Assembly (NCBI GenBank): GCA_963709425.1
Contig: CAVPWG010000005.1
Location: forward strand, 856,030-920,029
DNA from: an uncultured Actinomycetes bacterium
Lineage (GTDB): Bacteria > Actinomycetota > Thermoleophilia > Gaiellales > JAICJC01
Direction of reading: 5' to 3'
DNA length: 64,000 nucleotides
The translations under genes and the position numbers were made by a program. The notes under the pieces were generated by a model, which was not told where the DNA came from, ran no database searches, and saw only the letters and a list, made by a program, of their open reading frames with translations. Positions 5,252 to 64,000 of the stretch are shown here, in pieces; positions within the stretch are counted from its first letter, which is position 1, and every line of letters starts with the position of its first letter.

Positions 5252-5254
5252 CCG

Positions 5255-15428: not shown

Positions 15429-15510
15429 ACGCGCTCCTTTCGGCGCCCAGCCGGGCGCGCGGTCTAGACCGGACGATCTTCCCGCACGCACCGGATGTTG
15501 TCAACGGTTC

Positions 15511-15543
15511 GGGCCGGGCCGGCCGATGTCGCCGGCCCGGCCC
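15511..15543 (-). terminator. GC-rich hairpin downstream of the second APC permease (candidate intrinsic terminator without a U-tract)
   Basis: Perfect 13-bp stem GGGCCGGGCCGGC / GCCGGCCCGGCCC with a 7-nt loop CGATGTC, 9 nt after the stop at 15552. Confidence 0.45.
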
Positions 15544-15551
15544 CGATGCCG

Positions 15552-17195
15552 CTACTCGACCGGGATCTCGGCGTTGATCCGCGCCAGGTCGATGCCCTCC
15601 CGCTTGCGGGCCCACCGGGCCGCGGCGTAGACCACGAGCGCGAGCACGTAGAGCGCCGCGATGTAGATGAGCGACTTGTGGTTGTTGACGTAGTAGACGT
15701 CGTCCTGGAACCACTTCAGGAAGATGAAGGCCAGGAACCCGAGGAACACGACGCCCGTGGCCGTGATCAGCGGGATGCCGACGATCGTGTACTTCGCGAT
15801 CGGCGACGCCCGGTAGAGGTCGGGCTTCGTGAACGGCAGAATGATGGCGCCGAACGTCGTCGCGAAGAACGTCGCAGCGATCACGAGCGTCGCGTCGAGC
15901 GTGTACCCGTAGAAGGTCGTGCTGTACGCGTACAGCGCGCTCACGATGACGCCGGGGATGAACATGAGCGCCAGCGCCCCCAGCGGAACGTGAGTACGAT
16001 CGTCGACCTTGGCGGCCCACTCGGGCAACATCCGGTCGAACGCTGCCGCGAACACCATCCGCGTCGACGACAGGAAGAGCGTCCCGGCCCAGCCGAGGAA
16101 CCACAGCCCGAGCAGCCAGATGATGATCAGCTGAACGAGCTCGTTCGTGTAGAAGAAGGCTGCGAGCGTGCCCGGGTACGGGAAGAGGTAGAACGGCTCC
16201 TTGACGACCGTGAGCCAGTACTCGCCGCTCAGGATCCCGTAGAAGTCGAGCCCGACGGAATGGGCCATTGCCCCGAGGGTGATGACCGTGATCACGGTCA
16301 TGAAGACGAGCGCCCCGCCCATCGCGTAGATGTTCTTGCGGAAGTCACTGGCACCGCGGACCTCGCCGTACAGCGTGGCGCCCCAGTTCGGCCAGAGGTT
16401 GTAGAAGACGATGAACGGCAGGAGCAGGAACGTCTCCTTGACCGGGAAGGACCCGAGGCCCGGTGTGGTGTAGCCACCCCCGGCGGCGACCGTCTGCTGG
16501 TAGGCGTCGCCCTGCACGCCGTAGAGGTTGTGGGCGGACGTGTTGTAGGCGGTGATGAACTCCTGGTGCGAGTGGGTCAGGAAGATCAGGATCATCAGCA
16601 CCAGCCCGACCATGCCGCCGTAGAAGCAGTACTTCTGGATCTTGGCGTATGTCCGCATCCCGAGGGCGATGATCACGCTCGCCAGGACGGCGGTCAGGAT
16701 CGACGTGAAGAAAATGCCGTTCCCGTCGCTGGCGGAGTACGGCCACCAGTCCGCGTGGAAGGCGCTCGTCCCGGTGAAACCGAGGATCGTGAGCGTCGGC
16801 TGGATGACCTCGACCGCGAGGATGTTGGCGTAGATCGGGACCCAGTGCGACAGGATGAACCACCAGCCGGTCGCGGCCATCACGAACCCGATGCCGCCGC
16901 CGAGGATCCGGGTCTGCCACACGTAGTCGCCCCCGGCGCGCGGCATCACCGCCACGAGGGACGCATAGACGAGGACTTCAAACACGATGAAGAGGGCGGA
17001 CAGGACCACGGCCGCGATGAGCGCGCTCTCCGGGAGGACTGCGATGCCCGTGAACGCATAGCCGAAGCCGAGCGTGATCAGATTGATCGAAAGGGTGGCG
17101 TAGATGAATGCGTCGAAGACCGACCACCCCTTCACCAGGCCCGTGGCCTTCCGCACGAACATCGTGCGTTCCACTGGCATGTCTGCACTTGCCAA
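15552..17195 (-). CDS. APC-superfamily permease
   Basis: 547 aa, multi-TM (AVMPRAGGDYVWQTR). TTG start at 17195 is preceded by AGGAAAGGAGGGG 5 nt upstream. The internal ATG 17180 lies too far from that SD. Confidence 0.85.
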   Translation of the reverse strand: MASADMPVERTMFVRKATGLVKGWSVFDAFIYATLSINLITLGFGYAFTGIAVLPESALIAAVVLSALFIVFEVLVYASLVAVMPRAGGDYVWQTRILGGGIGFVMAATGWWFILSHWVPIYANILAVEVIQPTLTILGFTGTSAFHADWWPYSASDGNGIFFTSILTAVLASVIIALGMRTYAKIQKYCFYGGMVGLVLMILIFLTHSHQEFITAYNTSAHNLYGVQGDAYQQTVAAGGGYTTPGLGSFPVKETFLLLPFIVFYNLWPNWGATLYGEVRGASDFRKNIYAMGGALVFMTVITVITLGAMAHSVGLDFYGILSGEYWLTVVKEPFYLFPYPGTLAAFFYTNELVQLIIIWLLGLWFLGWAGTLFLSSTRMVFAAAFDRMLPEWAAKVDDRTHVPLGALALMFIPGVIVSALYAYSTTFYGYTLDATLVIAATFFATTFGAIILPFTKPDLYRASPIAKYTIVGIPLITATGVVFLGFLAFIFLKWFQDDVYYVNNHKSLIYIAALYVLALVVYAAARWARKREGIDLARINAEIPVE

Positions 17196-17208
17196 GACCC
17201 CTCCTTTC

Positions 17209-18147
17209 CTAGCCGGACGTGAGCACGAACTTCTTGACCTTCCTCCCCGAGAGCTCGATCACGGCGCCGAGCAGCTCGCCCTGCTCGTAGGCACTCCCGG
17301 GGTTGATGCACAGGGTGTCGCCAATGCGCGTGTGCCCGCGCGCCTCGTGGATGTGGCCGTGCAACGAGAGTGCCGGCTTGGTCTCCTTGATCGCCGTCCG
17401 CACCGCCTTCGAGCCGACCGGCTCCGGTGCGTGCCCGCCGTGCTTCGGGGTCATATCCGCGTTCAGGCCGGGCGCATCGTCGAGACCGGATGCGTACGGC
17501 GGGCAGTGCAGGTTCAGGATCACGCGCTCCGGCGGGTTCGTGAGGCGCGCGGTAACGCTCCGGATCCGTTCCAGGAGGACGTCCTCCGGTTCCTCGCGGT
17601 ACGTGTTCCAGGGCGTCACGTTCGACCAGCCCGTCGATGCCATCTGATAGTCGCCGACGTCGACGACCCGGCCCTCGGCGAGCTCGACCCGGGTCGCGGC
17701 GGCGAGGATCTCATCGACGTCGAACTGGTCGTCATTTCCCGGGCACACGAAGACGCGCTGCGGCTCGCCGGCCAGCTTCTCGGCGGCCATCGCCATCCAG
17801 CGCTCGACCGTCCCCAGCATCTCCTTGTGGAAGAGGTCGTCGAGACGATCGTCGTCGGCCTCGAGCTCGGCGAGCTGGTCGGGGGTCGTGCGGAACGGGT
17901 AGTAGCCACGCCGGATCACATCCCGCTCGAACGCGACGACCGCGTCCTCGCCGGCGAGCTCACGAAGCTGCTCCTGGAGCGTCCCGTGCCAGCGCTCGCC
18001 GCCGTCGTGGACAACCGGGACGAGCGCCTTCCCGGTCATGTCGCCGCCGAGGATCATCACGTCGGCCTCGTAGTGCGAGCCGGAGTTCAGGAACTTGCGC
18101 CAGCACGTCTCTGACCCGTGAATGTCCGTCGCGAAGAAGACCCTCAC
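17209..18147 (-). CDS. Metallophosphoesterase
   Basis: 312 aa. Calcineurin-like motifs DIHG, GGDMTG, CPGNDD, LHCPP and GHIHE. Confidence 0.85.
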   Translation of the reverse strand: MRVFFATDIHGSETCWRKFLNSGSHYEADVMILGGDMTGKALVPVVHDGGERWHGTLQEQLRELAGEDAVVAFERDVIRRGYYPFRTTPDQLAELEADDDRLDDLFHKEMLGTVERWMAMAAEKLAGEPQRVFVCPGNDDQFDVDEILAAATRVELAEGRVVDVGDYQMASTGWSNVTPWNTYREEPEDVLLERIRSVTARLTNPPERVILNLHCPPYASGLDDAPGLNADMTPKHGGHAPEPVGSKAVRTAIKETKPALSLHGHIHEARGHTRIGDTLCINPGSAYEQGELLGAVIELSGRKVKKFVLTSG

Positions 18148-51178: not shown

Positions 51179-53088
51179 GTGCGGCGCCTCGAACCTGTGA
51201 CCGTGAGCACGACCACCGACACGCGCCGCCCGAGCACGCGCACACCAGCGCAGGCGGCCCTCCTCGTGGGCGCGCTGGGCGTTGTCTTCGGCGACATCGG
51301 GACGAGCCCGATCTACACCGTCCAGACCGTGTTCAACCCGGGCGACCCGCATCCCGTGGCCGTCTCGAGCGACAGCGTCTTCGGTGTCATCTCGTTGATC
51401 TTCTGGTCGGTGACGATCGTCGTCACCCTGCTCTACGTCCTGCTGATCACGCTGGTTCGGGCGCGAAGCGTGCGCGGCGGCCGCCGCACGCGGCTCGCTC
51501 TGGCCGCCCTGGGGATCTTCGGCGCCTCGCTGTTCTTCGGCGACAGCATGATCACGCCCGCGATCTCGGTGCTGTCGGCCGTGGAGGGCCTGAAGGTCGT
51601 CCAGCCGTCGCTGGGGCATCTGGTCGTCCCGATCACCGCCGTCATCATCGTCATCCTGTTCGCCAGTCAGCGAATCGGCTCGGCGGCGGTCGGCAGGCTG
51701 TTCGGGCCGGTCATGATCGTGTGGTTCCTGGCGATCAGCGCGTGCGGCGTGGGCGGCATCGTCGACCATCCGGAGATCCTGAAGGCGCTCTCGCCGACCT
51801 ACGCGCTGGGGTTCCTGAGCGAGCACTTCTCGACCGCGTTCTTCTCGCTCGCCGCCGTGGTGCTCGCGATCACCGGCGCCGAGGCGCTGTACGCCGACAT
51901 GGGGCATTTCGGTCGCGCTCCGATCACGCGCGCGTGGCTGGTGCTCGTCTTCCCGGCGTGCATCACGAGCTACATGGGCCAGGGCGCGCTGGTGCTCGCG
52001 AACCCGCACGATGCGGTGCGCAGCCCGTTCTTCCTGCTCGTCCCGGATTGGGGCCGTCTGCCGATGGTGCTCCTCGCGACCGCGGCGACCGTCATCGCCT
52101 CACAGGCCGTCATCACCGGCGCCTTCTCGGTCGCCCACCAGGCCGTCCAGCTCGGATACCTCCCGCGCTTGCGGATCTCTCACACCTCCGAGCAGACGAT
52201 CGGCCAGATCTACGTCCCGTGGATCAACTGGGCGCTGATGATCTCGGTGCTGGTGCTCGTGTTCGCGTTCCGGACGTCAGCGGCCCTGGCGTTCGCCTTC
52301 GGCATGGCGGTCACCGGCACGATCACGATCACAACGCTGCTCTTCTTCTACATCGTCCGCCACCAATGGCGGAAGCCGCTGTGGCTGCTGTTGCCGGCGC
52401 CGGCGGCTTTCTCGTCGTCGACTTCCTGTTCCTCGCGGCGAACCTGACCAAGCTCACGCACGGGGCGTGGGTTCCGCTGTTGATCGGCGTGACGGTATTC
52501 ACGGTCCTCATCACATGGCAGCGCGGCCGTGCGCTCGTCACCAAGCTGCGGGAACGGGACGAGGGGTCGCTGCGGGCGTTCGTCGACGAGCTCCACCACC
52601 GGCAGCCGCCGCTCATGCGGGTGCCCGGCACCGCCGTGTTTCTCAACCGCGGCAAGCGCACCACGCCACTGGCGATGCGCGCGAACGTCGAGCACAACCA
52701 CATCCTGCACGAGCACGTCGTGATCGTCTCGATCGAGACGCTGCCGGTGCCGCACGTGGCCGCCGCCGACCGGCTCGCGGTCGACGACCTCGGCTACGCG
52801 GACGACGGGATCACCCACCTCAGCGCCCGCTTCGGCTACATGGACGAGCCCAACGTCCCCGCGGTGCTGCGTCTGGCCGCGGAGGCCGGCCTGGAATCCC
52901 CGCTCGAGGTCGATCAGGCCTCCTACTTCCTCTCCACGATCGAGCTCCACGTGGGCTCCACGCCCGGCATGAGCCGGTGGCGCAAGCGCCTGTTCGTGGC
53001 GACGTCGCAGATCACCGCCGACGCAGCGGAGTATTTCGGCCTGCCCCGCGAGCGAACCGTCGTCATGGGCTCGCGGATCGAGGTGTAG
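51179..53088 (+). pseudogene. kup: KUP/HAK/KT potassium transporter, frameshifted near 52391-52400 and lacking the conserved ADNxGEGG block
   Basis: ORF 51179..52447 matches Kup (GVVFGDIGTSPIYT, GDSMITPAISVLSAVEGL, TGAEALYADMGHFG, ASQAVITGAFS) up to ...RHQWRKPLWLLL. The sequence continues in the -1 frame of ORF 51172..53088 (AGAGGFLVVDFLFLAANLTKLTHGAWVPL ... VVMGSRIEV). Span length is 3n+2. Confidence 0.8.
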
Positions 53089-53129: not shown

Positions 53130-54050
53130 GTGCCCAATCTCCCTCGAAAGGCGATTCTCGCCGCCGCCACCGATCGCCGGACGCGCGCCTTCATGAACCG
53201 GTACGGCATGCGCCTCGGCGCGGCCCGCTTTGTGGCAGGGGAGACGCTCGACGACTGCCTTTCGGTGCTCGCCGACCTGAACGCCAAGGGGCTCCACGCC
53301 AACACGACCCTGCTCGGCGAGGACGTCGAGTCGCGCCAGGAGACCGTCTCCGTCGTCGCGGAGTTCCGCACGGTGCTCGACCGGATCGGTGAACGGGAGC
53401 TGAGGGCCAACCTGGCGGTCAAGCTGACCCACCTCGGCCTCCTGATCGACGAGGAGCTGGCGTACGAGAACGTGGGTGCGCTCGTGGATCACGCGGCCGA
53501 GCGGGGGAACTTCGTCCGGATCGACATGGAGCACTCGAGCGTCGTCGACGCGACGCTCCGCATCTACCGCCGGCTCCGTGAGAGCGGCCGCGACAACGTC
53601 GGCTGCGTCCTCCAGGCCTACCTCTACCGGACGCCGAGCGATCTCGACGCGCTGCTCCCGCTCGGCCCGAACCTGCGGCTCGTGAAGGGGGCCTACCTCG
53701 AGCCGCCTGAGATCGCCTACCCCAGGAAGCCCGACGTCGACGACGCCTACCGGCGGCTGCTGGAGCGCGCGCTCCAGGGCGGCGCGTACGTCGCGGTCGC
53801 GACGCACGACGAGCGGCTGATCGGCCACACGATCCGGTTCACCGGGGCGCACGGGATCGCACCCGACCGGTTCGAGTTCCAGATGCTCTACGGGGTGCGG
53901 CCGCAGCTCCAGCGCGACCTCGCCGCCCGCGGCTTCAAGGTGCTCGTGGCGACGCCGTACGGCCCCGAGTGGTACCCCTATCTCATGCGCCGCCTGGCGG
54001 AGAGACCCGCGAACCTGCTCTTCCTGGTCAGGAATCTCTTCGCCCGGTAG
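53130..54050 (+). CDS. Proline dehydrogenase (monofunctional PRODH)
   Basis: 306 aa. Contains RFVAGET, VRIDMEHS, LQAYLYR, RLVKGAY and YGPEWYPYLMRRLAERPAN. GTG start. Confidence 0.9.
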   Translation: MPNLPRKAILAAATDRRTRAFMNRYGMRLGAARFVAGETLDDCLSVLADLNAKGLHANTTLLGEDVESRQETVSVVAEFRTVLDRIGERELRANLAVKLTHLGLLIDEELAYENVGALVDHAAERGNFVRIDMEHSSVVDATLRIYRRLRESGRDNVGCVLQAYLYRTPSDLDALLPLGPNLRLVKGAYLEPPEIAYPRKPDVDDAYRRLLERALQGGAYVAVATHDERLIGHTIRFTGAHGIAPDRFEFQMLYGVRPQLQRDLAARGFKVLVATPYGPEWYPYLMRRLAERPANLLFLVRNLFAR

Positions 54051-54108
54051 GCGGCGCTCGCCGGGCTACAGAACTTGCCGGGCCGTCCGACGCCGCCGCC
54101 CCGTCGGG

Positions 54109-54870
54109 TCATGCCTTCTGCGCCACGAACGCGATCTTGCGGACGCGTCCGGTCTTCAGCCAGTCGCTCCAGAGCCGGTGGGCGGCCAGCAGCTCGTCCA
54201 GTGCCCGGCGCCCGATCTGCGCAGCGATGGCCGTTCCGTCGGCTGCGAACGCGTCGGTCAACGACTCCGCCATGGCGCGGTGGGACCGGCTGCAGTCGTC
54301 CTGCCAGCGAACGATCAGCCCGGCGCGCTCCAGCAACCCGCGCATGTCCGCGAGCGGGGTGAGCCAGACCGTGCCGGCGTCGGGCATGTGCCCTCGCTCC
54401 GACTCGGTGAGAGGCGGGCCCTCCTCCAGGGTGAACGCGAACCGCCCGCCGGCCGTGAGCGCCCGGGCGACCTCCCGAAGAAGCGTCTCCTTGTCGGGAA
54501 AGGCGAGCATGGTCTCGAGCAGGAGCACCACGTCGAACGCGCCGCCCGGGAGCGGCGGGACGTGCGCGACCTCGAACCGGCAGGGGAGGCCGCGGGCGCG
54601 CACGCGGGCGATGTCGATGGCGCTCGGGCTGTAGTCGACGCCCACGTAGCCGCAGCCCAGCGCTTGCGTGATGAACCGTCCCGGCCCGGCGACGCCGCAG
54701 CACAGGTCGAGCACGGAGACGCCGGGGGCGATGCCGGACCGCTCTGCCAGCGCTCGGATCTCGCCGGCGCACATGAAGCTCTCCTGCTCGACGTACTCGC
54801 CCGGGGGAAATGCCGCCTCCCGGGCCGGCCGGAGGGCCTCGACGAATGGTGCGCGGTCGTCCTGCTTCAC
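54109..54870 (-). CDS. Class I SAM-dependent methyltransferase
   Basis: 253 aa. Motif I VLDLCCGVAGPG. Confidence 0.8.
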   Translation of the reverse strand: MKQDDRAPFVEALRPAREAAFPPGEYVEQESFMCAGEIRALAERSGIAPGVSVLDLCCGVAGPGRFITQALGCGYVGVDYSPSAIDIARVRARGLPCRFEVAHVPPLPGGAFDVVLLLETMLAFPDKETLLREVARALTAGGRFAFTLEEGPPLTESERGHMPDAGTVWLTPLADMRGLLERAGLIVRWQDDCSRSHRAMAESLTDAFAADGTAIAAQIGRRALDELLAAHRLWSDWLKTGRVRKIAFVAQKA

Positions 54871-54908
54871 GAGAACCGGATCACAGGATCCACAGTAGTT
54901 CCCTTCAG

Positions 54909-57255
54909 ATGTTCGAGCGCGGAGGGAGGATGCGGGCGGTTCGAGGCCCCGCGACCGGGCTGGTCGCCCAGGCGCTGCTGCTCGCCGTCATCACGGCGAC
55001 CGTCGGGGTGACCGGTGCCGGTGCGGTCGTCGGAGCCGTGTGCGCGGTCACCTTGGACGCGGCGCTGGCGCGCGGCCTCCTGCGCAACCCCTCCGAGCGG
55101 CTGGGCCCGGCCGGATGGGTGACGCTTGGTCGGGCGACGCTCGTCATCGGCGTCGCGGCGCTGACCGCGGACTCGTTCGAGCGGGACGTGCCGGCGGCGA
55201 TGCTCGTGACGCTCGCGACCATGGCCCTGGTGCTCGACTACGTCGACGGATGGGTCGCGCGGAGGACCGCCACGACGTCGGCGTTGGGGGCACGCCTGGA
55301 CGGCGAGGTCGATGCGTTCCTCATCCTCGTCCTCAGCGTGTACGTGGCGCCGTCGGTCGGGGCGTGGGTGCTCGCGATCGGCGCGGCCCGCTACGTGTTC
55401 CTCGTCGCCGGGTGGATGCTCAGGTGGATGCGCGCACCGCTGCCGCGACGCGACTGGAGGAAGGTCGTCGCAGCGACGCAGGGGATCGTGCTGACGGTCG
55501 CAGCTGCCGGCGTCGTGCCGCCGAGGTTGATGCAGGCGGCCCTCGTTGTCGCGCTCGCCCTGCTCGCGGAGTCGTTCGGCCGCGACGTGTGGTGGCTCTG
55601 GCGCCACCGGCACGCCGCCGACCACGCCACGGACGCCCACCCCGGACGCGTCCGTGCGGGCATCGCCGTGGCGGTCACGCTGCTCGCCCTCGTCGTGGTG
55701 TGGGTGGCGCTCGTGGCTCCGAACCAGCCCAGCCTCGTCACCCCCGCTGCGTTCGTGAGGTTGCCGCTCGAAGGCATCGTCGTCATCGCGCTGGCCCTCG
55801 TCCTGCCCGGCACCGGTCGACGCCTCCTGGCCTGGGTGGTCGGACCGGCGCTCGGCCTCCTGGCCATCGTGAAGCTGCTCGACTTCGGCTTCTTCACCGC
55901 CTTCGACCGGCCGTTCAACCCCGTCGACGACTGGAGGTACACCTCCATCGGGATCGAGACGCTGCGGGCCTCGATCGGTCGGACGGACGCGAACCTGGCG
56001 CTGATCGGCGTGGCGCTGCTCACCGTCTTCGCGCTCGTCCTCCCGACCCTGGCCGTGCTCCGCCTGACCCGGGTCGCGGCCCGTCACCGCCGGCAGTCGC
56101 TCCAGACGGTGGCTGCACTCAGCGCCGCCTGGGTGCTCTGCTGGGCGTTCGGCGCGGAGCTCGTGTCCGGCGCGCGCATCGCCTCCCTGAGCGCCGCCGA
56201 CCTGGCCGTCCAGGAGGTGCGGGCGGTGCAGGCCGGCCTGCGAGACAGTGCGCGGTTCGCACACGCGATCCGCCGCGACCGCTATCACGCCACGCCGGGC
56301 AGCCGGCTGCTGACCGGCCTGCGCGGGAAGGACGTCCTCCTGGTATTCGTCGAGAGCTACGGGAAGGTGGCGGTGCAGGGATCCTCCTTCTCGCCGCAAG
56401 TCGACGCCGTCCTCGACGAGGGGTCGGGGCAGCTTCGGGCCGCCGGCTTCTCGTCGCGAAGCGGCTGGCTCACCTCGCCGACCTTCGGCGGCACGAGCTG
56501 GCTGGCGCACTCCACGCTCCAGTCGGGAACCTGGGTCAGAAGCCAGGGCCGGTATGACGAGCTCGTCGCAAGCAATCGCCTCACGCTCAGCCAGGCGTTC
56601 GAGCGCGCCGGGTGGCGGGCGATCGACGACGTGCCGTCGAACGACCGGTACTGGGCACAGGGGTCGTCGTTCTACCACTACGACAAGGTCTACGACCGGC
56701 GGAACGTCGGGTACCACGGCCCGACGTACGCCTACGCCTCCATGCCAGACCAGTTCGTGCTCCTGGCCCTCCAGCGCCTCGAGCTCGCGAAGGCCCACCG
56801 TCCCCCGCTCTTCGCCGAGGTCGACCTGGTGTCGAGCCACACGCCGTGGACGCGCATCCCGCCGCTCATCAAGTGGGGCGACGTCGGTGACGGCTCGATC
56901 TTCAACAGGCTCCCGGTCGACGAATCCGGCCTGAGCGACGTGAAACAGGGCTACGGCAGGTCGATCGAGTACACGCTGCGCTCCCTGTTCTCGCTACGTG
57001 GAGCACTACGGCCGCAAGAACCTGGTGCTCGTCGTGCTCGGCGACCACCAGCCCGCCACGGTCGTCACCGGGTACGGCGCCAGTCACGACGTGCCCATCT
57101 CGGTCATCGCCCACGACCCGGCGGTGATGCGCAGGATCGCCGGGTGGGGCTGGGTCGACGGCATGCGCCCCACCCCAACGGCGCCGGTCTGGCCGATGAG
57201 CGCGTTCCGCGACCGCTTCCTCGGCGCATTCGGCTCGCAGCCTGGCACGCGGTAG
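54909..57255 (+). pseudogene. CDP-alcohol phosphatidyltransferase fused to a polytopic linker and a sulfatase/LtaS-like (alkaline-phosphatase superfamily) domain; one-base frame break at ~56994
   Basis: Full CDP-OH motif DYVDGWVARRTATTSALGARLDGEVDAF (Dx2DGx2ARx8Gx3Dx3D). The C-terminal domain has LVFVESYG and DLVSSHTPW. After ...RSIEYTLRSLFS the frame breaks and continues in ORF 56998..57255 (YVEHYGRKNLVLVVLGDHQP...). Span length is 3n+1. Start is ATG 54909 or 54930. Confidence 0.75.
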
Positions 57256-57261
57256 CCCATT

Positions 57262-58452
57262 GTGAGCGTCGATATGGAACGTGTCGGCCGGGCTCGGGTA
57301 CCGCAGCCCGCGCGCGTTGCGGTACCGGCGGGCGCCGGCCCTTCGCGGAAGTGGCTCGCCGGGCTGGACGGCATCCGGGGCCTGGCCGCGCTGTTCGTGG
57401 TGGTGAACCATGTCTTCCTGCGAGCGTTCCCCGGGTACCCGGTGAGCCGGGCACCGTTCTGGGCGGGCTGGTTCATCTACGGGCGATTCGCCGTCGTCGT
57501 GTTCATCGTTCTCTCCGGCTTCTCGCTGGCCCTGTCGCCGGCCCGCCACGGCTGGCGGCTCGACCGGCTCCCGCGATTCGCCGAGCGACGGATCCGGCGC
57601 ATCGTCCCGGCGTACTGGGCCGCACTCGCCTTCAGCCTCGCGGTGGCGTGGCTGGTCGTCCCTCCGCCGGGACAGGCAGCGCCCGACGCCGGTTCAGTCG
57701 TCGTCAACGGCCTCCTGGTGCAGAACCTCGTCAGCGCGCCGAGCCCCAACCGAGCGTTCTGGTCGATCGCGGTCGAGGCCCAGCTGTACATCCTGTTCCC
57801 CCTGCTGCTGCTCATGGTCCGCCGTCGGGGCGCGTTCGTCATGCTCGCCGCCGTCACGCTCGTCGTGGCGACGGTGGGGATCCTGGGCCCGCATGTGTCC
57901 CACCTGGACTTCATCGTGATCCAGTCACCGCCCGACCTCGCCGCGCTGTTCGCGGTCGGCATCCTGAGCGCCGGCATCGTGGGCGCGAGCGCGGCGCGGA
58001 GGTCGTGGCCATGGGCCGGGCTCGCGCTCGCCGCCGCAGCTCCCGTGCTCGCCACGATCTGGTGGCAGGGCTCGGTGTGGACGCTCGACCACCTGTTCTG
58101 GGTCGACCTGATGCTGGGCCCGGCTGTCGGGTGCCTGCTGGCCGGTCTGGCGACGGGGCGGCCCGCGCCGCTGCTGCGCCTGCTCGACACGCGGCCGCTG
58201 CGCAACCTCGGCTGGTCGTCCTACAGCCTCTACCTGACGCACGGCCCGATCGTCGTCGTCGTGTATGAGCGCGTCGTGGCCGGCCGGGTCCGCCCGGGCG
58301 TTCCGGCGTTCCTCGTGTCGCTCGCCCTGGTGCTGCCGCTCACCATCGCGTTCGCGCGGGTCTTCGCGTCGGTGTTCGAGACCCCGTTCCGCAGCGGCGG
58401 CAGCATCGGCCGCCTTGGTCAGTCCGTCCGGAACCGCGGCGAGAGCGCGTAG
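57262..58452 (+). CDS. Acyltransferase family 3 (membrane O-acyltransferase)
   Basis: 396 aa. Contains LDGIRGLAALFVVVNH and FIVLSGFSL. About 10 TM segments. Confidence 0.85.
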   Translation: MSVDMERVGRARVPQPARVAVPAGAGPSRKWLAGLDGIRGLAALFVVVNHVFLRAFPGYPVSRAPFWAGWFIYGRFAVVVFIVLSGFSLALSPARHGWRLDRLPRFAERRIRRIVPAYWAALAFSLAVAWLVVPPPGQAAPDAGSVVVNGLLVQNLVSAPSPNRAFWSIAVEAQLYILFPLLLLMVRRRGAFVMLAAVTLVVATVGILGPHVSHLDFIVIQSPPDLAALFAVGILSAGIVGASAARRSWPWAGLALAAAAPVLATIWWQGSVWTLDHLFWVDLMLGPAVGCLLAGLATGRPAPLLRLLDTRPLRNLGWSSYSLYLTHGPIVVVVYERVVAGRVRPGVPAFLVSLALVLPLTIAFARVFASVFETPFRSGGSIGRLGQSVRNRGESA

Positions 58453-59108
58453 CGCAGGAGCACCACGTCGCCGATGCGGCGGACGTCCGCGAGCGTCGCG
58501 CGCCGGCCGGGGTTCCACGGGAACACGCCGTCGCGCACGAACCTCGGAGCCTGGGAGTCGCCGACGAACATCGGAGCAACGACGAGCTGCAGCTCGTCGG
58601 CGAGGTCGTCGGTCAGAAACTGCGTGTGCACCTTGCCCCCGCCCTCGACCATCAGCCGCTCGACGCCGCGTGCGGCGAGGTCCGTGCTGAGCTTGCGCAT
58701 GTGCACGATCTGGCCGCCGTCGACGACGGTCGCGACCGGCCCGAGTCGCGCGCGGGCGTCGACCACACGCGGGCTCGCGCAGTAGACGAGCTTCTCCGCG
58801 TCGCCGGTCGTGAAGAAGTCGGCGCGCGCGTCGAGCTCGGCCCGTCGGGTCACGGTCACCTTCATCGGAGACGGCGCGAGCCCCCGCGCCGTCCGCTCGT
58901 CGCGGCGGGCCTGTGAGCGCACCACGAGCCGCGGGTTGTCGATCCGCACGGTCGCCGCGCCGACCAGGATCGCGTCGCAGGAGGCGCGGACCGCGTCGAT
59001 TCGGTCGAAGTCGTCGTCGTTCGACAGAAGGAGCCGCGACGCCGCGCTCCCGATGTAGCCGTCGATCGACACGCTGCACGAGAGCAGGGTGTACGGACGG
59101 TCACGCAT
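58419..59108 (-). CDS. RibD C-terminal domain / dihydrofolate-reductase-like reductase
   Basis: ORF 58419..59384(-) trimmed to ATG 59108 (MRDRPYTLLSCSVSIDGYIG...ILVGAATVRIDNP...LMVEGGGKVHTQFL). 8-nt overlap with the upstream membrane-protein stop. Confidence 0.8.
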   Translation of the reverse strand: MRDRPYTLLSCSVSIDGYIGSAASRLLLSNDDDFDRIDAVRASCDAILVGAATVRIDNPRLVVRSQARRDERTARGLAPSPMKVTVTRRAELDARADFFTTGDAEKLVYCASPRVVDARARLGPVATVVDGGQIVHMRKLSTDLAARGVERLMVEGGGKVHTQFLTDDLADELQLVVAPMFVGDSQAPRFVRDGVFPWNPGRRATLADVRRIGDVVLLRYALSPRFRTD

Positions 59109-60087
59109 CGCGGGCTCCGTCCGGCTGGCCGACGACCGCGACCCGGCCCGGGCGCGGCGATTGACGCTGCGCCGGATGCCGGGCACGAGCGAGCCACGCA
59201 CCCACGAGGACGAGCGCGCCCGGCAGGCTGGCGACGACCGCCATGATGCCGTACGCGACGGCGGTGGCGACGCCCACATCCGCACCGAGGCCGGCGGAGG
59301 CGAACACCCACGCCGTCGCCCCCTCGCGCGGCCCCCAGCCGGCCGCGCTGGGCAGCACCATCGCGAGCATCGCAAGGAACGCAAGCGGCAGCATCCGGGA
59401 CGGCGGCGCGGTGGCGCCGGCGGCCCGCGCGGCGATCAGGAACGTGGCCGCGTGGCCGAGGACGACCACCGCCGACGCGACGGCGATGGCCGGGAACGCC
59501 CTCCGGGAGAGCAGCCCGTCGCGAAGGTCACGGGCGACCACGCGGCGCACCCGCGCCCACCGGGACCGCCCGCGGCCCGGCCGCGTCCGGTCGACCAGCA
59601 CGACGCCGATCACCGTCAGCACGAGGGCGACGGTCACGAGCGGCATGGACGACTGGACGGGCGACGGCAGCGCGAGGAGGACGACGACGGTGAGCACGAC
59701 CTGCACGAGCTGCCCGGCGGTGCGTTCCCATGCGACCGCACGCAGGGCCAGTCCCACATCGCGGACGTCGCGCCCGTGGCTGACGCCCCGGTGTACGTCG
59801 CCGACCACCCCGCCGGGGAGCGTGAGGTTCAGGAACACCGACCGGTAGTACGCCGCGACGGCGGCCGGCAGCGACAGGTCGACGCCGAGGCCGCGGGCCA
59901 CGATCGTCCATCGCCAGGCGCAGCAGACCGTGGTCATGAGGCCGATCCCTGCCGCCGCGGCGAGCGCACGGCCGTCCACCGCGCTGACGCCGTCCCGGAA
60001 GGGGCCCGTGCCCAGGCGCCAGACGACGATGGCGAGCGTCGCGGCGGCGGCCGCGGCGCGCGCCCACGCCCACATGGTCCGGCTCAT
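59101..60087 (-). CDS. Flippase-like polytopic membrane protein (UPF0104 / lysyl-PG synthase TM-region family)
   Basis: Last 328 codons of the composite ORF 59101..61392(-), from ATG 60087 (MSRTMWAWARAAAAAATLAIVVWRLG...). About 8 TM segments. The ATG overlaps (ATGA) the TGA that ends the restored methyltransferase frame. Confidence 0.7.
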   Translation of the reverse strand: MSRTMWAWARAAAAAATLAIVVWRLGTGPFRDGVSAVDGRALAAAAGIGLMTTVCCAWRWTIVARGLGVDLSLPAAVAAYYRSVFLNLTLPGGVVGDVHRGVSHGRDVRDVGLALRAVAWERTAGQLVQVVLTVVVLLALPSPVQSSMPLVTVALVLTVIGVVLVDRTRPGRGRSRWARVRRVVARDLRDGLLSRRAFPAIAVASAVVVLGHAATFLIAARAAGATAPPSRMLPLAFLAMLAMVLPSAAGWGPREGATAWVFASAGLGADVGVATAVAYGIMAVVASLPGALVLVGAWLARARHPAQRQSPRPGRVAVVGQPDGARDA

Positions 60088-60936
60088 CCCGGCCCCCATC
60101 GGCGCAAGGGCGCTCCCGGCAGGGCCAGCAGGTCGGTGTGACCGACCGTGACGCGGAGCTCCCCGGCTCGTGCTGCCGTCAGCCGGCGCTCGTGCGTAGG
60201 CATCGGCTTCGGCGGCCAGCTCGGCCTCCTGCTCGCACGCCGCGCCGACCCACCCGGCGAGCCACTCCGCCGCCAGATCGGCCTGGGCGGCGCCGAGCCG
60301 CCACGGGCTCGGGCGGTCGAGCACCTCGGCCCCCAGCCGCCGGAACTCCGCGACGGCCGCCGCGACGGCGTCAGGGCCCAGCAGACGCCCGGCGGCCGTC
60401 ATGCGGCGCTGGTGGGTGTCGAAGGCCGCCGCCACGCGGGGGTCGAGCGGATCCGCCGGCGCCAGGTCGACGCGGCCGGAGACCGATAGCGTCAGCAGCA
60501 CCGGGCACCGCGCCCCCGCGCAGGCGGCGACCAGCCCGGCCAGCTCGTCTCGGGTCATCAGGTCGAGCAGCGCCGAGGCGGTGATGAGGGTCGCGCCCGC
60601 GAGCTCGTCTGGTTCGAGCTGCGTGATGTCGGACAGCCTCGGCTCGACGACGACGGATGTCCCGTCGGCGGCCGAAGCGGGAACGTCGCAGGCGGCCACC
60701 TCGAGCAGGTCCGGGTCACGGTCGTGCACGACCCAGTGCTGCGGCCCCGGCAGGAGCGGCGCGAGCCATCGGCCCATCGCCCCGGTGCCGCAGGCGAGGT
60801 CGTGGATCACCCGGTGGCCGGTCGCCGGTAGGCGGCGCCGGAGGTGCTCGACGAGGTCGGGGGCCCTGGCAGCGGCGTCGGCGGGCTCGCGGAGGTCGAG
60901 CCACTCGGAGCTGACCCGGATCTCCTCGACGGTCAT
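60084..60936 (-). pseudogene. Class I SAM-dependent methyltransferase with a one-base frame break near 60193-60198
   Basis: From ATG 60936 (ATGA overlap with the GT stop): [20 protein letters not shown]...VIHDLACGTGAMGRW... After ...AEADAY the listed frame becomes Arg/Pro/Gly junk. The +1 frame reads HERRLTAARAGELRVTVGHTDLLALPGAPLRRWGPG* and ends at TGA 60084-60086. Span length is 3n+1. Confidence 0.65.
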
Positions 60937-61991
60937 CGCGCTGCTCCCGCCAGAACACCGGCGAGAACCGACGTGGTGGTCGACCACCGCGAGAGCGACG
61001 CGCGCCGCTCGCGGGCGGCCAGGCGCATCCGCCGTCGCAGCCCGGCGTCGCCGAGCCACGCCCGGAGCGCGGCGCCGAGCGCGGCGGGGTCGCCGGGCGG
61101 GACGAGCAGGCCCGGCCGAACACCGTCGGCGCCGTGACCGAGGGCCTCCGGCACCCCGCCGACCTCGGCCGCGACGACCGGCAGGCCGCGGGCGAGCGCC
61201 TCGGTGACGACCATGCCGTAGGTCTCCGAGCGCGACGCCAGCACCAGCAGGTCCGCGGCGCCGTAGCTGCGGGCAAGATCGGATCCGCTCTGCGGCCCCG
61301 GGAAGCGCATGCGCCCGGCCAGCCCGGCGTCCCGGACTCGACGGCGGAGGCTCTCGGCAAACGCCGCGTCGCGGTCGAGGCTGCCCACACACAGGCAGTC
61401 CCAGCGAAGGCCGGTCATCGGCGCGAGCGCGTCGAGCAGCACGTCATGGCCTTTGCCGGGGATCACCGCGGCGACGGAGAGCAGCGCTCCGGCGGTCTCG
61501 GTGCCCGGTGCGAGGCCGGCCGCATCGACGCCGGGCTCGGCGACGTGCACGCCGTCCGGGGGCAGCGAGTACAGCTCGAGGAGAATTCGCCGGGCCCACC
61601 GGCTGGTCGTGACAACCGAAGCGGCGGCCGCAAGGACCGCGGCCTCCCGCCTCCTGTCGCCGTCAGCTCCACCGCCGTGGCCCAGCGGCATGTGCACCAG
61701 CGCGACCAACCGAAGCCGGCCCGCCTGCGGCACCAGCACCTCCGGCGCGGTCGAGGCGACGAGCCCGTCGAGCAGCACGACGGCGCCGTCGGGGATCTGC
61801 TCGACGATGCCGGCGAGGGCGGCGTACGACGCCGCGCCGGGACGCGGCCAGGGGCCGGTGACGGCGTGCACACGCACCGACCAGCCGGCCTCCGCGAGCC
61901 CGTGGCACACCCGGCGGTCATAGGCGTTCCCGCCGGTCGGCCGGGCCGGATCGTCGATGCCGTCCGGCACCACGACGTGCACCTCCGTCAC
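60933..61991 (-). CDS. GT4-family glycosyltransferase
   Basis: 352 aa. C-terminal GT-B donor-binding block [36 protein letters not shown] overlap with the upstream stop. Confidence 0.85.
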
Positions 61992-62386
61992 AGCGCTCTC
62001 TCGTAGCTCGCCCAGGCGACGTGCGACTCGTGGAGCGTGACGACCAGCCCGTCGAGGTCACGAGCGGAGTCGCCCAGGGCGCCCGCATGCACGCGCTCGG
62101 CGAGTCGGTCCGCGATCACGCGGGCGAGGGCCTCCGTGGAGGTGTTCATGCCCGCGAAGGCCAGGTCGTCGTCGAGGTTCGAGTAGGTGAGCTCGGCCAC
62201 CACCGCGTGCAGCTCCTCGCCGGCTCGACCGATGTCGACCACGATGCCGTCGGCGTCGAGGTCCGCGCGCCGGAACGTGGCATCGATGACGTACGTCGCT
62301 CCGTGGAGCCGCTGGGCGGGCCCGAACACCGCGCCGCGCAGGCTGTGGGCGATCATCATGTGGTCGCGAACGGTCACGCTGAACAC
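61988..62386 (-). CDS. 6-pyruvoyl-tetrahydropterin synthase (PTPS/QueD) family T-fold protein, non-canonical active site
   Basis: 132 aa. Aligns by eye to the QueD N-terminus (xxAHSL...RLHGxTY), but the HGH reads HGA and an Ala sits where QueD has its catalytic Cys. Confidence 0.7.
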
Positions 62387-62390
62387 GGGC

Positions 62391-63380
62391 CTACCCCTCG
62401 CCGTAGGTGATGGTGTGACACAGGGCCGGCAGGCGCCCGGCGGCGAGCCGAGCCATCACGTCGGGCAGCTCGTGGAAGCGCGACTCGCCGGTGAGGACGG
62501 CGTCGAAGGCCGGATCCCGCAGCAGGTCCAGTGCCAGCGCCAGCCGGTCGGCCGTCGTGCGGCTCCCGCTGCGTGCCGGGGAGATTGTGCCGACCTGGCT
62601 CGAGCGGATGCCGAGGCGCCCGGCGTGGAACGCCCCACCCAGAGAGAGCCGGACCTCCGTGTCGCCGTACCAGCTGAGATCGATCACGGTGCCCTCCGGG
62701 GCCAGCAGGTCGAGCGACCGCTGAAGGCCGGCGGACGTCGCGCTCGTGTGCACGACCAGGTCGCGGCCGTCGGAGGCATCGGCCGGGAGCGCGAAGTCGA
62801 CCCCGAGGGCGGCCGCGACATCCGCCCGGCCGGTATCGACGTCAACGAGCGTGACATCCATGGCCGGGTACCGCGCCAGCAGGCGTGCGACGCAGCAGCC
62901 CACCATCCCGGCGCCGACCACGGTGACCCGGTCGCCGACCAGCGGGGCGGCATCCCACAGGGTGTTGACGGCGGTCTCGACCGTGCCGGCGAGCACCGCC
63001 CGAGCCGGCGGCACGCCCTCCGGAACGACGAACACGGCGCCGGCCGGGACGACGTAGGCGGTCTGGTGCGGGTAGAGACAGAAGACGGTTCGGCCACGCA
63101 GCTCCGGCGGCCCCTGCTCCACGGCGCCGACGTTCAGGTAGCCGTACTTGACCGGCCCGGGGAAGTCACCCTCCTGGAAGGGTGCGCGCAGCCTCGCGTA
63201 CTGCTCCGGCGGCACGCCGCCCCGGAACACCAGCGTCTCGGTGCCGCGGCTGACGCCCGACCGCACGGTGCGCACCATCACGTCGCCAGGGCCCGGCTCG
63301 GGCAGCGTCACCGGCCGGATCTCCCCGCGACCCGGCGCACGCAGCCAGAACGCGTGGGCTGTTCCTCGATCGTCGACCAT
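62391..63380 (-). CDS. Zinc-type (MDR family) alcohol/polyol dehydrogenase
   Basis: ORF 62391..63458(-) trimmed to ATG 63380 ([17 protein letters not shown]...). GroES-like N-terminal domain. Rossmann [17 protein letters not shown]. Confidence 0.8.
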
Positions 63381-63579
63381 CGACCAGTTGACGCCGTTCA
63401 CGTGGCGGACATGTTCGCACGCTTCTCCTACCAGGATGCTCTTCGGGAGTACGCGCAAACGCCGCCCTCGGATTCACTTCCGGTCGCTGCGTGAACGCCA
63501 GGGGCAGCGCTTTGGGCGGGGTTCATCCCCTCGGGGCGATGCGGCTTCCGCCGCTTGGAGCCATCGTCGGTATATCGAG

Positions 63580-63924
63580 ATGACCGATGCGACCACCCAG
63601 TTCTTCGACGCGCTCGCGGCGCGCGGGCACGAACCGGCGCTGGCCAAGATCACCGGCACGATCCGGTTCGATCTCAGGGACGGCGACTCGGGCGCGGTGC
63701 GCTGGCTCATCACGATCACAAAGGGCGACATCGCGCTCTCGCACAGGAACGCCAAGGCCGACTGCGTCGTGCGGCTCGACCGAGCGCTCTTCGACCGCAT
63801 TGCGAGCGGTGAGGCGAACGCGCTGGCCGCGTTCCTTCGTGGGGCGATCGAGCTCGAAGGCGATCGCGGGCTGATGCTGGCGTTCCAGCGTGCGTTTCCA
63901 GGACCTCCAAGGAAGGGTGCATGA
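63580..63924 (+). CDS. SCP2 sterol/lipid-binding domain protein
   Basis: ATG 63580 within ORF 63148..63924(+): MTDATTQFFDALAARGHEPALAKITGTIRFDL...LDRALFDRIASGEANALAAFLRGAIELEGD. Typical SCP2 C-terminal pattern. Confidence 0.7.
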   Translation: MTDATTQFFDALAARGHEPALAKITGTIRFDLRDGDSGAVRWLITITKGDIALSHRNAKADCVVRLDRALFDRIASGEANALAAFLRGAIELEGDRGLMLAFQRAFPGPPRKGA

Positions 63925-64000
63925 CCAGCGATCTCGTCACGATCCTCGACGGCAACACATTCGTCGTCAGCGACTCCTGCGGCGACATCGAGGCGTCGCT
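63921..64000 (+). CDS. Start of a glycogen-debranching-enzyme-N-terminal-domain / amylo-alpha-1,6-glucosidase-like protein (partial, runs off the right edge)
   Basis: ATGA overlap with the SCP2 stop. My translation is MTSDLVTILDGNTFVVSDSCGDIEAS, which resembles the N-terminus of GDE_N-type proteins (LxDGxTFxVSDxxGDI) as I recall it. Confidence 0.45.
   Translation, partial: MTSDLVTILDGNTFVVSDSCGDIEAS

Follow-up and report, generated by a model that had tools for sequence, protein, structure and literature searches.

What does the operon at 63380 to 58419 of the 64,000-nucleotide stretch analysed here make? The stretch (hereafter the window) is part of contig CAVPWG010000005.1 of an uncultured Gaiellales bacterium, and the six tightly packed minus-strand genes in question encode a dehydrogenase, a T-fold protein of the 6-pyruvoyltetrahydropterin synthase (PTPS) family, a family 4 glycosyltransferase (GT4), a methyltransferase, a flippase-like membrane protein and a RibD_C reductase. 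An earlier note made from the DNA letters alone (hereafter the initial annotation) offered either a reduced, glycosylated and methylated pterin-like molecule or a lipid-anchored or exported envelope glycoconjugate as the product. We favour, tentatively and with somewhat less than even confidence, the reading that the operon serves one pathway, in which an early intermediate of the riboflavin pathway, derived from GTP, would be turned into a glycosylated and methylated head group, joined to a phosphatidyl group, flipped across the membrane and transferred to an acceptor outside. This reading is built on observed synteny and family assignments, on the catalytic residues lost or retained, and on a fold resembling that of the lipoteichoic acid (LTA) synthase LtaS.

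The genes concerned are the following (bit scores are from Pfam profiles):

63380..62391, minus strand: gene for a dehydrogenase resembling the medium-chain dehydrogenase/reductase (MDR) superfamily, the first of the operon (329-aa homologues back the start at 63380)
62386..61988, minus strand: T-fold protein of the PTPS-IV subfamily, orthologue of SCO6650 (PF01242, 83.7 bits)
61991..60933, minus strand: MshA-like retaining GT4 glycosyltransferase (PF00534, Glycos_transf_1, 95.9 bits)
60936..60084, minus strand: probable class I S-adenosylmethionine (SAM) methyltransferase (Methyltransf_25 below cut-off; an extra base at 60190 shifts the frame)
60087..59101, minus strand: flippase-like membrane protein of the UPF0104/LPG_synthase_TM family (PF03706, 88.4 bits)
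59108..58419, minus strand: RibD_C pyrimidine reductase (PF01872, 122.5 bits)
54930..57255, plus strand: fusion of a CDP-alcohol phosphatidyltransferase with an LtaS/LtaP-like domain (PF01066, CDP-OH_P_transf, 40.6 bits; an extra G at 56993)
57262..58452, plus strand: family-3 membrane O-acyltransferase (PF01757, Acyl_transf_3, 112.6 bits)
54109..54870, minus strand: second SAM methyltransferase, divergent from the fusion gene (Methyltransf_25 and Methyltransf_11, about 50 bits)

Re-reading the open reading frames (ORFs), junctions and overlaps from the sequence bears out the coupled six-gene chain. The MDR-like gene is separated from the PTPS-like gene by a 4-nt gap (62390-62387), the PTPS-like and GT4 genes share a GTGA overlap, the methyltransferase starts at 60936 within an ATGA overlap with the GT4 gene, and the flippase-like and RibD_C genes overlap by 8 nt. 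The 3' end of the RibD_C gene runs 34 nt (58419-58452) into the convergent acyltransferase gene, exactly as described in the initial annotation.

The case for a single system comes in the first place from its conservation. Searching species-representative genomes with the PTPS-like protein as query confirmed at least 395 relatives among 600 candidate stretches, and the counts given here refer to the best 80 of these, from different species, with PTPS-like proteins 73-92% identical to that of the window. The families were counted by targeted tblastn of the window proteins in the 80 loci, because single-linkage clustering of ORFs had merged the GT4, methyltransferase and flippase-like (LPG_TM) genes, and likewise RibD_C with GTP cyclohydrolase II (GCH II):

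PTPS-like protein: 80/80 loci
GT4 glycosyltransferase: 80/80
MDR-like dehydrogenase: 79/80
LPG_TM flippase-like protein: 73/80, mostly between the methyltransferase and RibD_C/GCH II genes
RibD_C reductase: 68/80
methyltransferase of the operon: 65/80
CDP-alcohol (CDP-OH) transferase: 61/80
LtaS-like C-terminal domain: 53/80
second methyltransferase (54109-54870): 31/80, adjoining the CDP-OH/LtaS-like gene in the loci inspected
Acyl_transf_3: 11/80, all close relatives
SCP2: 1/80

The loci represent both Actinomycetes (Micromonospora, Streptomyces, Peterkaempfera, Amycolatopsis and Actinomadura, together with metagenome-assembled genomes, MAGs, of Kribbellaceae, Nocardioidaceae, Jiangellaceae and Pseudonocardiaceae) and Thermoleophilia (Solirubrobacterales, Gaiellales and Thermoleophilaceae). 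The neighbourhood survey that the initial annotation had proposed thus finds synteny in all 80, with the order MDR-like, PTPS-IV, GT4 kept in 79-80 and with PTPS-IV translationally coupled to the GT4 and MDR-like genes in essentially every locus. The CDP-alcohol phosphatidyltransferase is a core member of the cluster, its gene varying in position: in Micromonospora and Streptomyces it diverges from the MDR-like gene, and in other loci it lies downstream or convergent. Acyl_transf_3, which the initial annotation had counted in, does occur with the system, as a lineage-specific accessory gene rather than part of the core, and the second methyltransferase is a probable accessory member. In metagenomes the PTPS-IV family forms more than 8000 protein clusters, mostly from soil Actinomycetota, and a family so common plausibly has a housekeeping or envelope role. 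One MAG of the Solirubrobacterales, CAVWFJ01, holds two separate PTPS-IV loci (L008 and L009); in the former, the flippase-like and CDP-OH genes seem to be missing, though its contig is full of frame breaks.

Clustering of all ORFs with a high GC content at third codon positions exposed two more conserved families in the loci. The first is GCH II itself (PF00925, 190 bits; the RibA subfamily in NCBIfam), encoded in 52 of the 80 loci and adjoining RibD_C on the same strand in 41 of the 48 that hold both genes. A creatininase-family gene (PF02633, 208 bits), representing the second family, is present in seven loci, which belong to Streptomyces, Peterkaempfera, Actinomadura and Amycolatopsis. The two families covary at a position of GCH II presumably equivalent to Tyr105 of Escherichia coli RibA: among the 49 loci tabulated (for instance L014, 13407-14090, and L072, ~15329-15907 and 14281-14994), Tyr occupies it in 41 of the 42 without the creatininase-family gene, and Met, Leu or His in all seven with it. 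According to Spoonamore and Bandarian, SCO6655, one of the three RibA homologues of Streptomyces coelicolor, reportedly stops at the N-formyl intermediate owing to a Tyr-to-Met change. A new, non-flavin function of one of the three S. coelicolor homologues is mentioned in a 2026 review (PMC13151069), and BrbF, a creatininase-family enzyme, has been found experimentally to deformylate AFRPP to DARoPP (PMC9478397). The residue pattern suggests that in the creatininase loci a cyclohydrolase forming the formyl intermediate is paired with a BrbF-like formamidase. Combined with the BrbF precedent, the covariation points to 2,5-diamino-6-ribosylamino-4(3H)-pyrimidinone 5'-phosphate (DAROPP) as the common entry metabolite of the cluster. 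The linked cyclohydrolase is GCH II, not GTP cyclohydrolase I (GCH I), which speaks against the pterin reading of the initial annotation, with dihydroneopterin triphosphate as substrate.

Neither a GCH II nor a creatininase-family gene was found within the 64-kb window, so that in this organism the cyclohydrolase must be encoded in another part of the genome, presumably by the housekeeping gene. In two other loci, L008 (7011-7958 region) and L064 (~4690-5900), GCH II and a divergent RibD_C (28-31% identity to that of the window) are apparently fused, being in frame with no stop between the alignments. A gene of the inositol monophosphatase (IMPase) family (14725-15504; PF00459, 181 bits) comes after the creatininase-family gene in the Amycolatopsis locus L076, the sole locus in which it was seen; its product is a candidate phosphatase for a polyol-phosphate intermediate.

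The T-fold protein, whose Pfam match (PF01242, the COG0720 family) lies far above the cut-off of 22.4 bits, is most similar to PDB entry 3D7J, deposited as 'Uncharacterized protein SCO6650' (E = 2.5e-60; about 80% identity, estimated by eye from the alignment). An FGPAQ motif, the signature of the PTPS-IV subfamily, is invariant in the aligned family, and the presence of a GCH II gene in PTPS-IV neighbourhoods has been noted already (PMC5445326). In 20 of the 20 members aligned the catalytic Cys of PTPS is replaced by Ala, the Asp-His pair by Ser/Thr-Tyr and the third Zn-binding His by Ala; in the profile alignment to the rat, human and Caenorhabditis elegans enzymes, GKC corresponds to GPA, GHGH to LHGA and LDHKNLD to LSYRNLD. 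Glu120, within LHESH, is invariant and occupies the position at which T-fold enzymes anchor the 2-amino-4-oxopyrimidine ring. The protein, as far as its sequence tells, is a member of the PTPS fold family that fails the catalytic definition of PTPS or QueD. Having lost the Cys, the Asp-His pair and one of the Zn-binding His residues, it cannot carry out the PTPS reaction, and PTPS chemistry on dihydroneopterin triphosphate, on which the pterin reading of the initial annotation drew, is not supported. SCO6650 itself reportedly lacks zinc and PTPS activity, a statement to which the residue losses lend indirect support. It was reportedly crystallised in 2008, and SCO6655 characterised in 2006; the literature that we searched gives a product or a physiological role for neither.

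The partner enzymes, too, differ in part from their first labels. The dehydrogenase had been called a Zn-dependent MDR, a label that holds in part: a GxGxxG motif (VVGAGMVG) is conserved, but the Zn ligands are not: SGVSRGTE and KYGYLNVG sit in the family alignment where Zn-MDRs have Cys and His-Glu, no ADH_N domain was matched in Pfam, and ADH_zinc_N scores 23.3-25.2 bits, below its cut-off of 31.8. In NCBIfam it matches BchC (TIGR01202) best, by way of its N-terminal part, and we regard the protein, from these alignments, as an NAD(P)-dependent MDR-superfamily dehydrogenase with a BchC-like N-terminus and without the catalytic Zn ligands. The GT4 protein exceeds the Glycos_transf_1 cut-off of 26.4 bits by a wide margin and shows the E-x7-E motif; its best PDB match is MshA of Corynebacterium glutamicum (3C4Q/3C48, E = 3.5e-18), with sucrose-phosphate synthase, BshA and PimA ranking next. 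The acceptors glycosylated by MshA, BshA and sucrose-phosphate synthase are small, anionic and soluble. The methyltransferase of the operon has a conserved motif I (DLxCGTG, here DLGCGTG), scores 23.5-25.8 bits against Methyltransf_25 (cut-off 27) and, in single-sequence and profile searches of the PDB, retrieves weak generic class I or motif-I matches, with E ≈ 0.03 at best in the profile search. For the second methyltransferase the NCBIfam matches are likewise below threshold (DVU_1556-family methyltransferase, 60.7 versus 155 bits; lipid O-methyltransferases).

For the RibD_C protein the best NCBIfam model is TIGR01508 (Rib7/ArfC), and its best PDB matches are 5XV5/5XUX (E ≈ 1e-27), deposited as 'Conserved protein', which we take to be Methanosarcina mazei Rib7, followed by 6P8C and 2AZN. 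By sequence it is thus closest to the archaeal and fungal Rib7 reductases acting on DAROPP. The initial annotation had pointed to the dihydromethanopterin reductase DmrA; no DmrA model and no DmrA-like signal appeared among its NCBIfam or PDB matches, the DmrA sequence itself not having been compared directly.

These results bear on the first of the alternatives, a soluble glycosylated pterin cofactor. In such a scheme, parallel to the routes to biopterin or neopterin glycosides, GTP would pass through PTPS, a reductase and a glycosyltransferase, RibD_C would be a dihydropterin reductase resembling DmrA or dihydrofolate reductase, and the membrane proteins would export or anchor the product. 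The scheme has attractions: the T-fold protein retains the ring-anchoring Glu, the gene set resembles the generally known pteridine-glycoside pathways of cyanobacteria and Chlorobium, the RibD_C fold family includes DmrA and Rv2671 (the latter among the matches listed, at E = 2.4e-15, weaker than the Rib7 enzymes), and BchC-like dehydrogenases, to judge from the BchC match, would oxidise a 1-hydroxyalkyl group beside the ring. Yet the residues needed for PTPS chemistry are gone from PTPS-IV, GCH II yields a monophosphorylated ribosylaminopyrimidine instead of dihydroneopterin triphosphate, and the best matches of RibD_C are all pyrimidine reductases of the riboflavin type. A CDP-alcohol transferase and an LtaS-like domain, co-conserved with the rest, would moreover make no sense for a soluble cofactor, and we consider this explanation unlikely, the least so among the alternatives.

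In the lipid module, the CDP-alcohol transferase clearly matches PF01066 (40.6-41.4 bits, cut-off 22) and preserves the D-x2-DG-x2-AR-x8-G-x3-D-x3-D motif unbroken, reading LDYVDGWVARRTATTSALGARLDGEVD; its nearest NCBIfam match is PgsA. Its likelier start is the ATG at 54930, behind GGAGGGAGG, rather than 54909 as given before. The C-terminal domain takes up about 365 residues of the 774-aa fusion, which is unbroken in a near-identical metagenome contig, L081. The L081 protein itself has no Pfam sulfatase match; homologues of the domain at 65-76% identity do carry PF00884. A profile of 13 members of the domain retrieved the Listeria LTA primase LtaP (4UOP) with E = 8e-6. E41, T84, SSH 201-203 and GDH 270-272 (D271, H272) are invariant in the 13 sequences; in the alignment with LtaP the Glu and the Thr fall in its LESF and SNTAD motifs, opposite the metal-binding Glu and the nucleophilic Thr. 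An AlphaFold2 model of the domain, obtained with a mean predicted local distance difference test (pLDDT) of 71 and a predicted template modelling score (pTM) of 0.78, was compared with solved structures by Foldseek; the top hits were LtaP 4UOP (E = 5.5e-8) and then LtaS, EptC, MCR-1, GacH, BcsG and EptA, at the very distant identities of 12-16%. Each of these enzymes is anchored in the membrane, works outside the cytoplasm and takes its phospho-head group from a phospholipid. Profile, catalytic residues and predicted fold agree with the LtaS-like call made on the fusion in the initial annotation, and within the limits of sequence and modelling they confirm it as a genuine LtaS/LtaP-like phospho-head-group transferase domain.

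A hydropathy scan of the fusion gave some 6 + 5 hydrophobic segments, and five for the stand-alone form; taken as transmembrane (TM) helices, the 6 + 5 would place the LtaS-like domain outside the membrane. Streptomycetaceae have the CDP-alcohol transferase as a short protein of its own (L072, 7944-8759), and in Peterkaempfera L066 a separate protein with the LtaS architecture, five TM helices followed by the LtaS-like domain, is encoded at 16275-18116, downstream of GCH II. Given these separate genes, the fusion in the window would be a derived or alternative arrangement. The flippase-like protein (PF03706, cut-off 33.4 bits) has several predicted hydrophobic segments, and its gene is translationally coupled between those for the methyltransferase and RibD_C, in the midst of the small-molecule genes. 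The family-3 acyltransferase gene follows the fusion gene after 18 nt in L081. With a CDP-alcohol transferase in the core, an LtaS-like domain beside it and a flippase gene amid the small-molecule genes, the lipid or envelope side of the initial annotation comes out strengthened.

One could take this module at face value and suppose that CDP-OH, UPF0104, the LtaS-like protein and GT4 make a glycolipid-anchored polyol-phosphate polymer of LTA type, or a related glycolipid, from an ordinary phospholipid, with GCH II, RibD_C, PTPS-IV and the MDR-like protein merely co-located passengers. LtaP and LtaS are the top fold matches, PgsA is the nearest NCBIfam match of the transferase, the GT4 is related to lipid glycosyltransferases of the PimA type, and Actinobacteria make LTA yet 'lack clear LtaS orthologues' (PMC3196553). 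Against this, the two supposed modules are interleaved and translationally coupled (methyltransferase, flippase, RibD_C), they stay together from Streptomyces to Solirubrobacterales while the CDP-OH gene shifts its position beside different genes of the set, and the best matches of the GT4 use soluble acceptors. We rate this explanation slightly below the pterin cofactor, and thus as unlikely too.

The single-pathway model, in which head-group synthesis and lipid module belong together, is the most economical reading and can be outlined as follows. In the cytoplasm, GCH II would convert GTP into DAROPP; in the clusters of Streptomyces type, the Tyr-less GCH II would yield the N-formyl form, from which the creatininase-family formamidase would strip the formyl group. 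The Rib7-like RibD_C would then reduce the ribosyl to a ribityl moiety with no prior deamination, and the Zn-less PTPS-IV protein together with the BchC-like dehydrogenase would process the 2-amino-4-oxopyrimidine. In an attractive, purely conjectural variant, the C2' hydroxyl of the ribityl chain would be oxidised and the ring would close to 7,8-dihydroneopterin 3'-phosphate, without any need for GCH I. The MshA-like GT4 would add a sugar to the polyol phosphate and the methyltransferase a methyl group, whereupon the CDP-alcohol phosphatidyltransferase would couple the product to a phosphatidyl group and the UPF0104 protein flip the resulting lipid. On the outer side, the LtaS-like domain would pass the phospho-head group to an envelope acceptor or polymerise it, and in the lineage of the window the family-3 acyltransferase would O-acylate the exported glycan. 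We infer every substrate in this scheme, the acceptor, and the order of the steps from the T-fold and dehydrogenase reactions through glycosylation and methylation to lipid attachment. A plant precedent for a glycoside derived from GCH II exists in vicine of the faba bean, a pyrimidine glucoside proposed to derive from DARPP (bioRxiv 10.1101/2020.02.26.966523).

Several points weigh against this pathway. Reducing the ribosyl moiety only to re-oxidise it at C2' would be a roundabout route to a pterin. The core set includes neither a cytidylyltransferase nor a dedicated phosphatase (the IMPase-family gene of the single Amycolatopsis locus aside), about one third of the loci, including the window, have no GCH II nearby, and some Micromonospora loci lack an adjacent CDP-OH gene. 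RibD_C reaches 134 bits with TIGR01508, for which the cut-off is 186; the profiles support the operon methyltransferase weakly; the AlphaFold2 model of the MDR-like protein, built from 30 close homologues, had a pLDDT of 41 and was discarded; and the TM topology of the fusion rests on a crude hydropathy scan. Finally, the sole functional statement that we found for PTPS-IV, an unpublished claim, links the subfamily to cofactor F420 (PMC5041015).

That last remark leads to a further possibility, namely that GCH II, RibD_C and PTPS-IV supply a precursor for F420 or riboflavin by a route in the archaeal style that leads to 5-amino-6-ribitylaminouracil for Fo/F420; PTPS-IV would perhaps be the missing diaminopyrimidine deaminase, and the other genes would be unrelated neighbours. 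The family does occur in Actinomycetota, which are generally known to make F420, and the archaeal order, reduction before deamination, fits the nearest relatives of RibD_C. The single remark on F420 is, however, one for which no publication with data turned up in the literature searched. Neither fbiC/cofGH nor fbiA, fbiB or fbiD is among the recurring families within ±10 kb of the 80 loci, the most frequent of which were checked by eye or with Pfam, and the genes to which PTPS-IV is coupled in essentially every locus are those for GT4 and the MDR-like protein. F420 synthesis, moreover, has no place for GT4, the methyltransferase, the flippase-like protein, CDP-OH or the LtaS-like domain, and we hold this explanation to be improbable.

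It remains to account for the frame breaks of the window. L081 encodes an identical PTPS-like protein and is 99.5% identical to the window over 12 kb, and in it both the methyltransferase (283 aa) and the CDP-alcohol transferase fusion (774 aa) are unbroken. Over these two genes the window differs from L081 solely by an extra base at 60190 and an extra G at 56993, the latter shifting the frame of the transferase gene near 56990. The ATGA junction that the initial annotation placed at the end of the methyltransferase gene appears once the base at 60190 is removed, as in L081; in the window as it stands, the frame reads on into the flippase-like ORF. The indels break different genes in the two assemblies (Kup, methyltransferase and transferase in the window, the GDE gene in L081), and the sister contigs L082 and L083 are strongly fragmented. 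Since the genes are intact in L081, different genes are broken in each assembly and the sister contigs are fragmented, we read the frameshifts as assembly errors rather than decay; both in the operon are probably such errors, the pattern being as expected of long-read consensus errors. A decaying operon, its methyltransferase and transferase reduced to pseudogenes and the cluster non-functional in this organism, would explain why two of its genes are frame-broken in the window, but each break is one inserted base absent from L081, and we reject this explanation as very improbable. The Kup-type K+ transporter gene of the window (51179-53088) is split over two frames, with indels relative to L081 at 52389-52392 and 52948, an error of the same single-base type as those of the operon.

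Some features around the operon deserve brief mention. The initial annotation had drawn into the lipid context an SCP2 gene coupled by a 4-nt overlap to a gene for a GDE-family glycosidase (region 63580-64000 in the window, 6383-8469 in L081 and 6379-8807 in L082), the GDE gene being one ORF in L082 and split in L081. The SCP2 protein of the window is confirmed by Pfam (55.5 bits); with SCP2 in a single locus out of 80 and the pair not conserved with the operon, we place both genes outside the system. None of the Pfam-confirmed cluster proteins of the window reaches an NCBIfam equivalog cut-off. A promoter and terminator scan of 54000-64000 found none, and an Rfam scan of the whole window and seven related loci revealed no riboswitch or other RNA family except one tRNA. 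Where the CDP-OH and MDR-like genes are divergent (L014, ~8896-8957; L015, L016, L029, L037, L054, L060, L070 and others), their intergenic regions share blocks across families in the order CCTCCGTGT, a variable stretch, ACACGG, a near-constant spacer of ~20 nt and CGGTTC. The first two blocks form an inverted repeat, with one apparent compensatory change in L054, and the Shine-Dalgarno sequence of the CDP-alcohol transferase gene overlaps with the first. The blocks may act as an operator or a promoter, or fold as a hairpin in the 5'-UTR. The window, in which these two genes do not diverge, lacks them in this form.

How does the cluster relate to known systems? Parts of it have been noted before: the SCO6650 structure, the SCO6655 activity, the PTPS-IV subfamily and the proximity of GCH II to PTPS-IV. 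The S. coelicolor proteins are its nearest counterparts, SCO6650 sharing with the T-fold protein of the window the high identity, FGPAQ and the same losses of PTPS residues, and the link to GCH II (there the SCO6655 variant) being common to the cluster as a whole; the window differs in lacking GCH II and creatininase genes within its 64 kb and in having the CDP-alcohol transferase and LtaS-like domain, separate genes in Streptomycetaceae, fused and convergent to the operon. With the archaeal steps of riboflavin and F420 synthesis (ArfA, ArfB, ArfC/Rib7) and with BrbF the cluster would share a GTP-derived formylamino- or diamino-ribosylaminopyrimidine phosphate, a separate deformylating amidohydrolase and a stand-alone RibD_C that reduces before deamination. 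Its cyclohydrolase, in contrast, has the GCH II fold and not that of ArfA, the cluster comes with no deaminase, lumazine synthase or Fo synthase, the scores with the archaeal equivalogs stay below cut-off (TIGR01508, as given above; ArfB, 38 versus 180 bits), and its T-fold and MDR-like proteins, GT4, methyltransferase and lipid module are foreign to flavin synthesis.

The glycosylation and lipid steps recall the logic of phosphatidylinositol and its mannosides (PgsA1, PimA and an acyltransferase) and of mycothiol synthesis, where MshA, the nearest relative of the GT4, glycosylates a polyol phosphate. The cluster shares the CDP-alcohol transferase, the GT4 and, in some loci, an acyltransferase, but has no inositol-phosphate synthase; as the polyol, a pyrimidine or pterin would carry a ribityl or trihydroxypropyl chain, and its acyltransferase belongs to family 3, the type acting on exported glycans, and is not PatA-like. 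With LtaS/LtaP, GacH, EptA/MCR-1 and BcsG, and with the flippase domain of MprF type, it has in common the fold, the catalytic Thr, Glu, Asp and His, and the PF03706 partner, and the five predicted TM helices, after which the domain would lie outside, resemble theirs. It is set apart from them by the low identity and missing direct Pfam match mentioned above, by the fusion of the domain to an enzyme that would make its own donor lipid, and by a donor head group that is presumably neither glycerol phosphate nor phosphoethanolamine. Finally, as in the synthesis of vicine and convicine in the faba bean and of toxoflavin, a dedicated GCH II would divert GTP to a non-flavin aminopyrimidine product, glycosylated in vicine and methylated in toxoflavin; COG3236 N-glycosidase and ToxC/D-type genes are missing from the cluster, whereas the T-fold protein and the lipid and export module are missing from those pathways. 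The cluster can be likened to operons for the building of a head group, its attachment to a phospholipid, flipping and transfer to the outside, with a head-group chemistry that, as we infer it so far, would be unprecedented. In the literature searched we found neither a product for the cluster nor an account of its link to a lipid or LtaS-like module, and the paper on the Lipocone superfamily does not mention the neighbourhood; to that extent the initial annotation, which knew of no described pathway with this gene set, is borne out. Its gene set is retained as far as the six genes are conserved, and was incomplete in overlooking GCH II, the creatininase link, the second methyltransferase (54109-54870) and the identity of the T-fold protein as SCO6650/PTPS-IV.

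The interest of the cluster lies in the fact that the function of an orphan enzyme family some 15 years old becomes directly testable, framed as one pathway with a complete conserved set of components: GCH II with or without a formamidase, a Rib7-like reductase, the T-fold protein, a BchC-like dehydrogenase, an MshA-like glycosyltransferase, a methyltransferase, a PgsA-like transferase, a flippase-like protein and an LtaS-like domain. Should the proposed model be true, the riboflavin pathway would gain a new branch point and the T-fold a new catalytic use, and a lipid head group or wall decoration of a new type would have been found. It is possible, if on balance rather doubtful, that Actinomycetota possess in this way a new class of envelope molecules, phospholipids or wall or lipoglycan decorations whose head group, a GTP-derived 2-amino-4-oxopyrimidine or pterin glycoside, would be built by GCH II, Rib7, the BchC-like dehydrogenase and the Zn-less T-fold protein without GCH I, and delivered by a module of CDP-alcohol transferase, UPF0104 protein and LtaS relative. 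The lipid module may be the long-sought LtaS-type enzyme of Actinobacteria, and could then explain LtaS-type chemistry in those actinobacteria that lack clear LtaS orthologues (PMC3196553).

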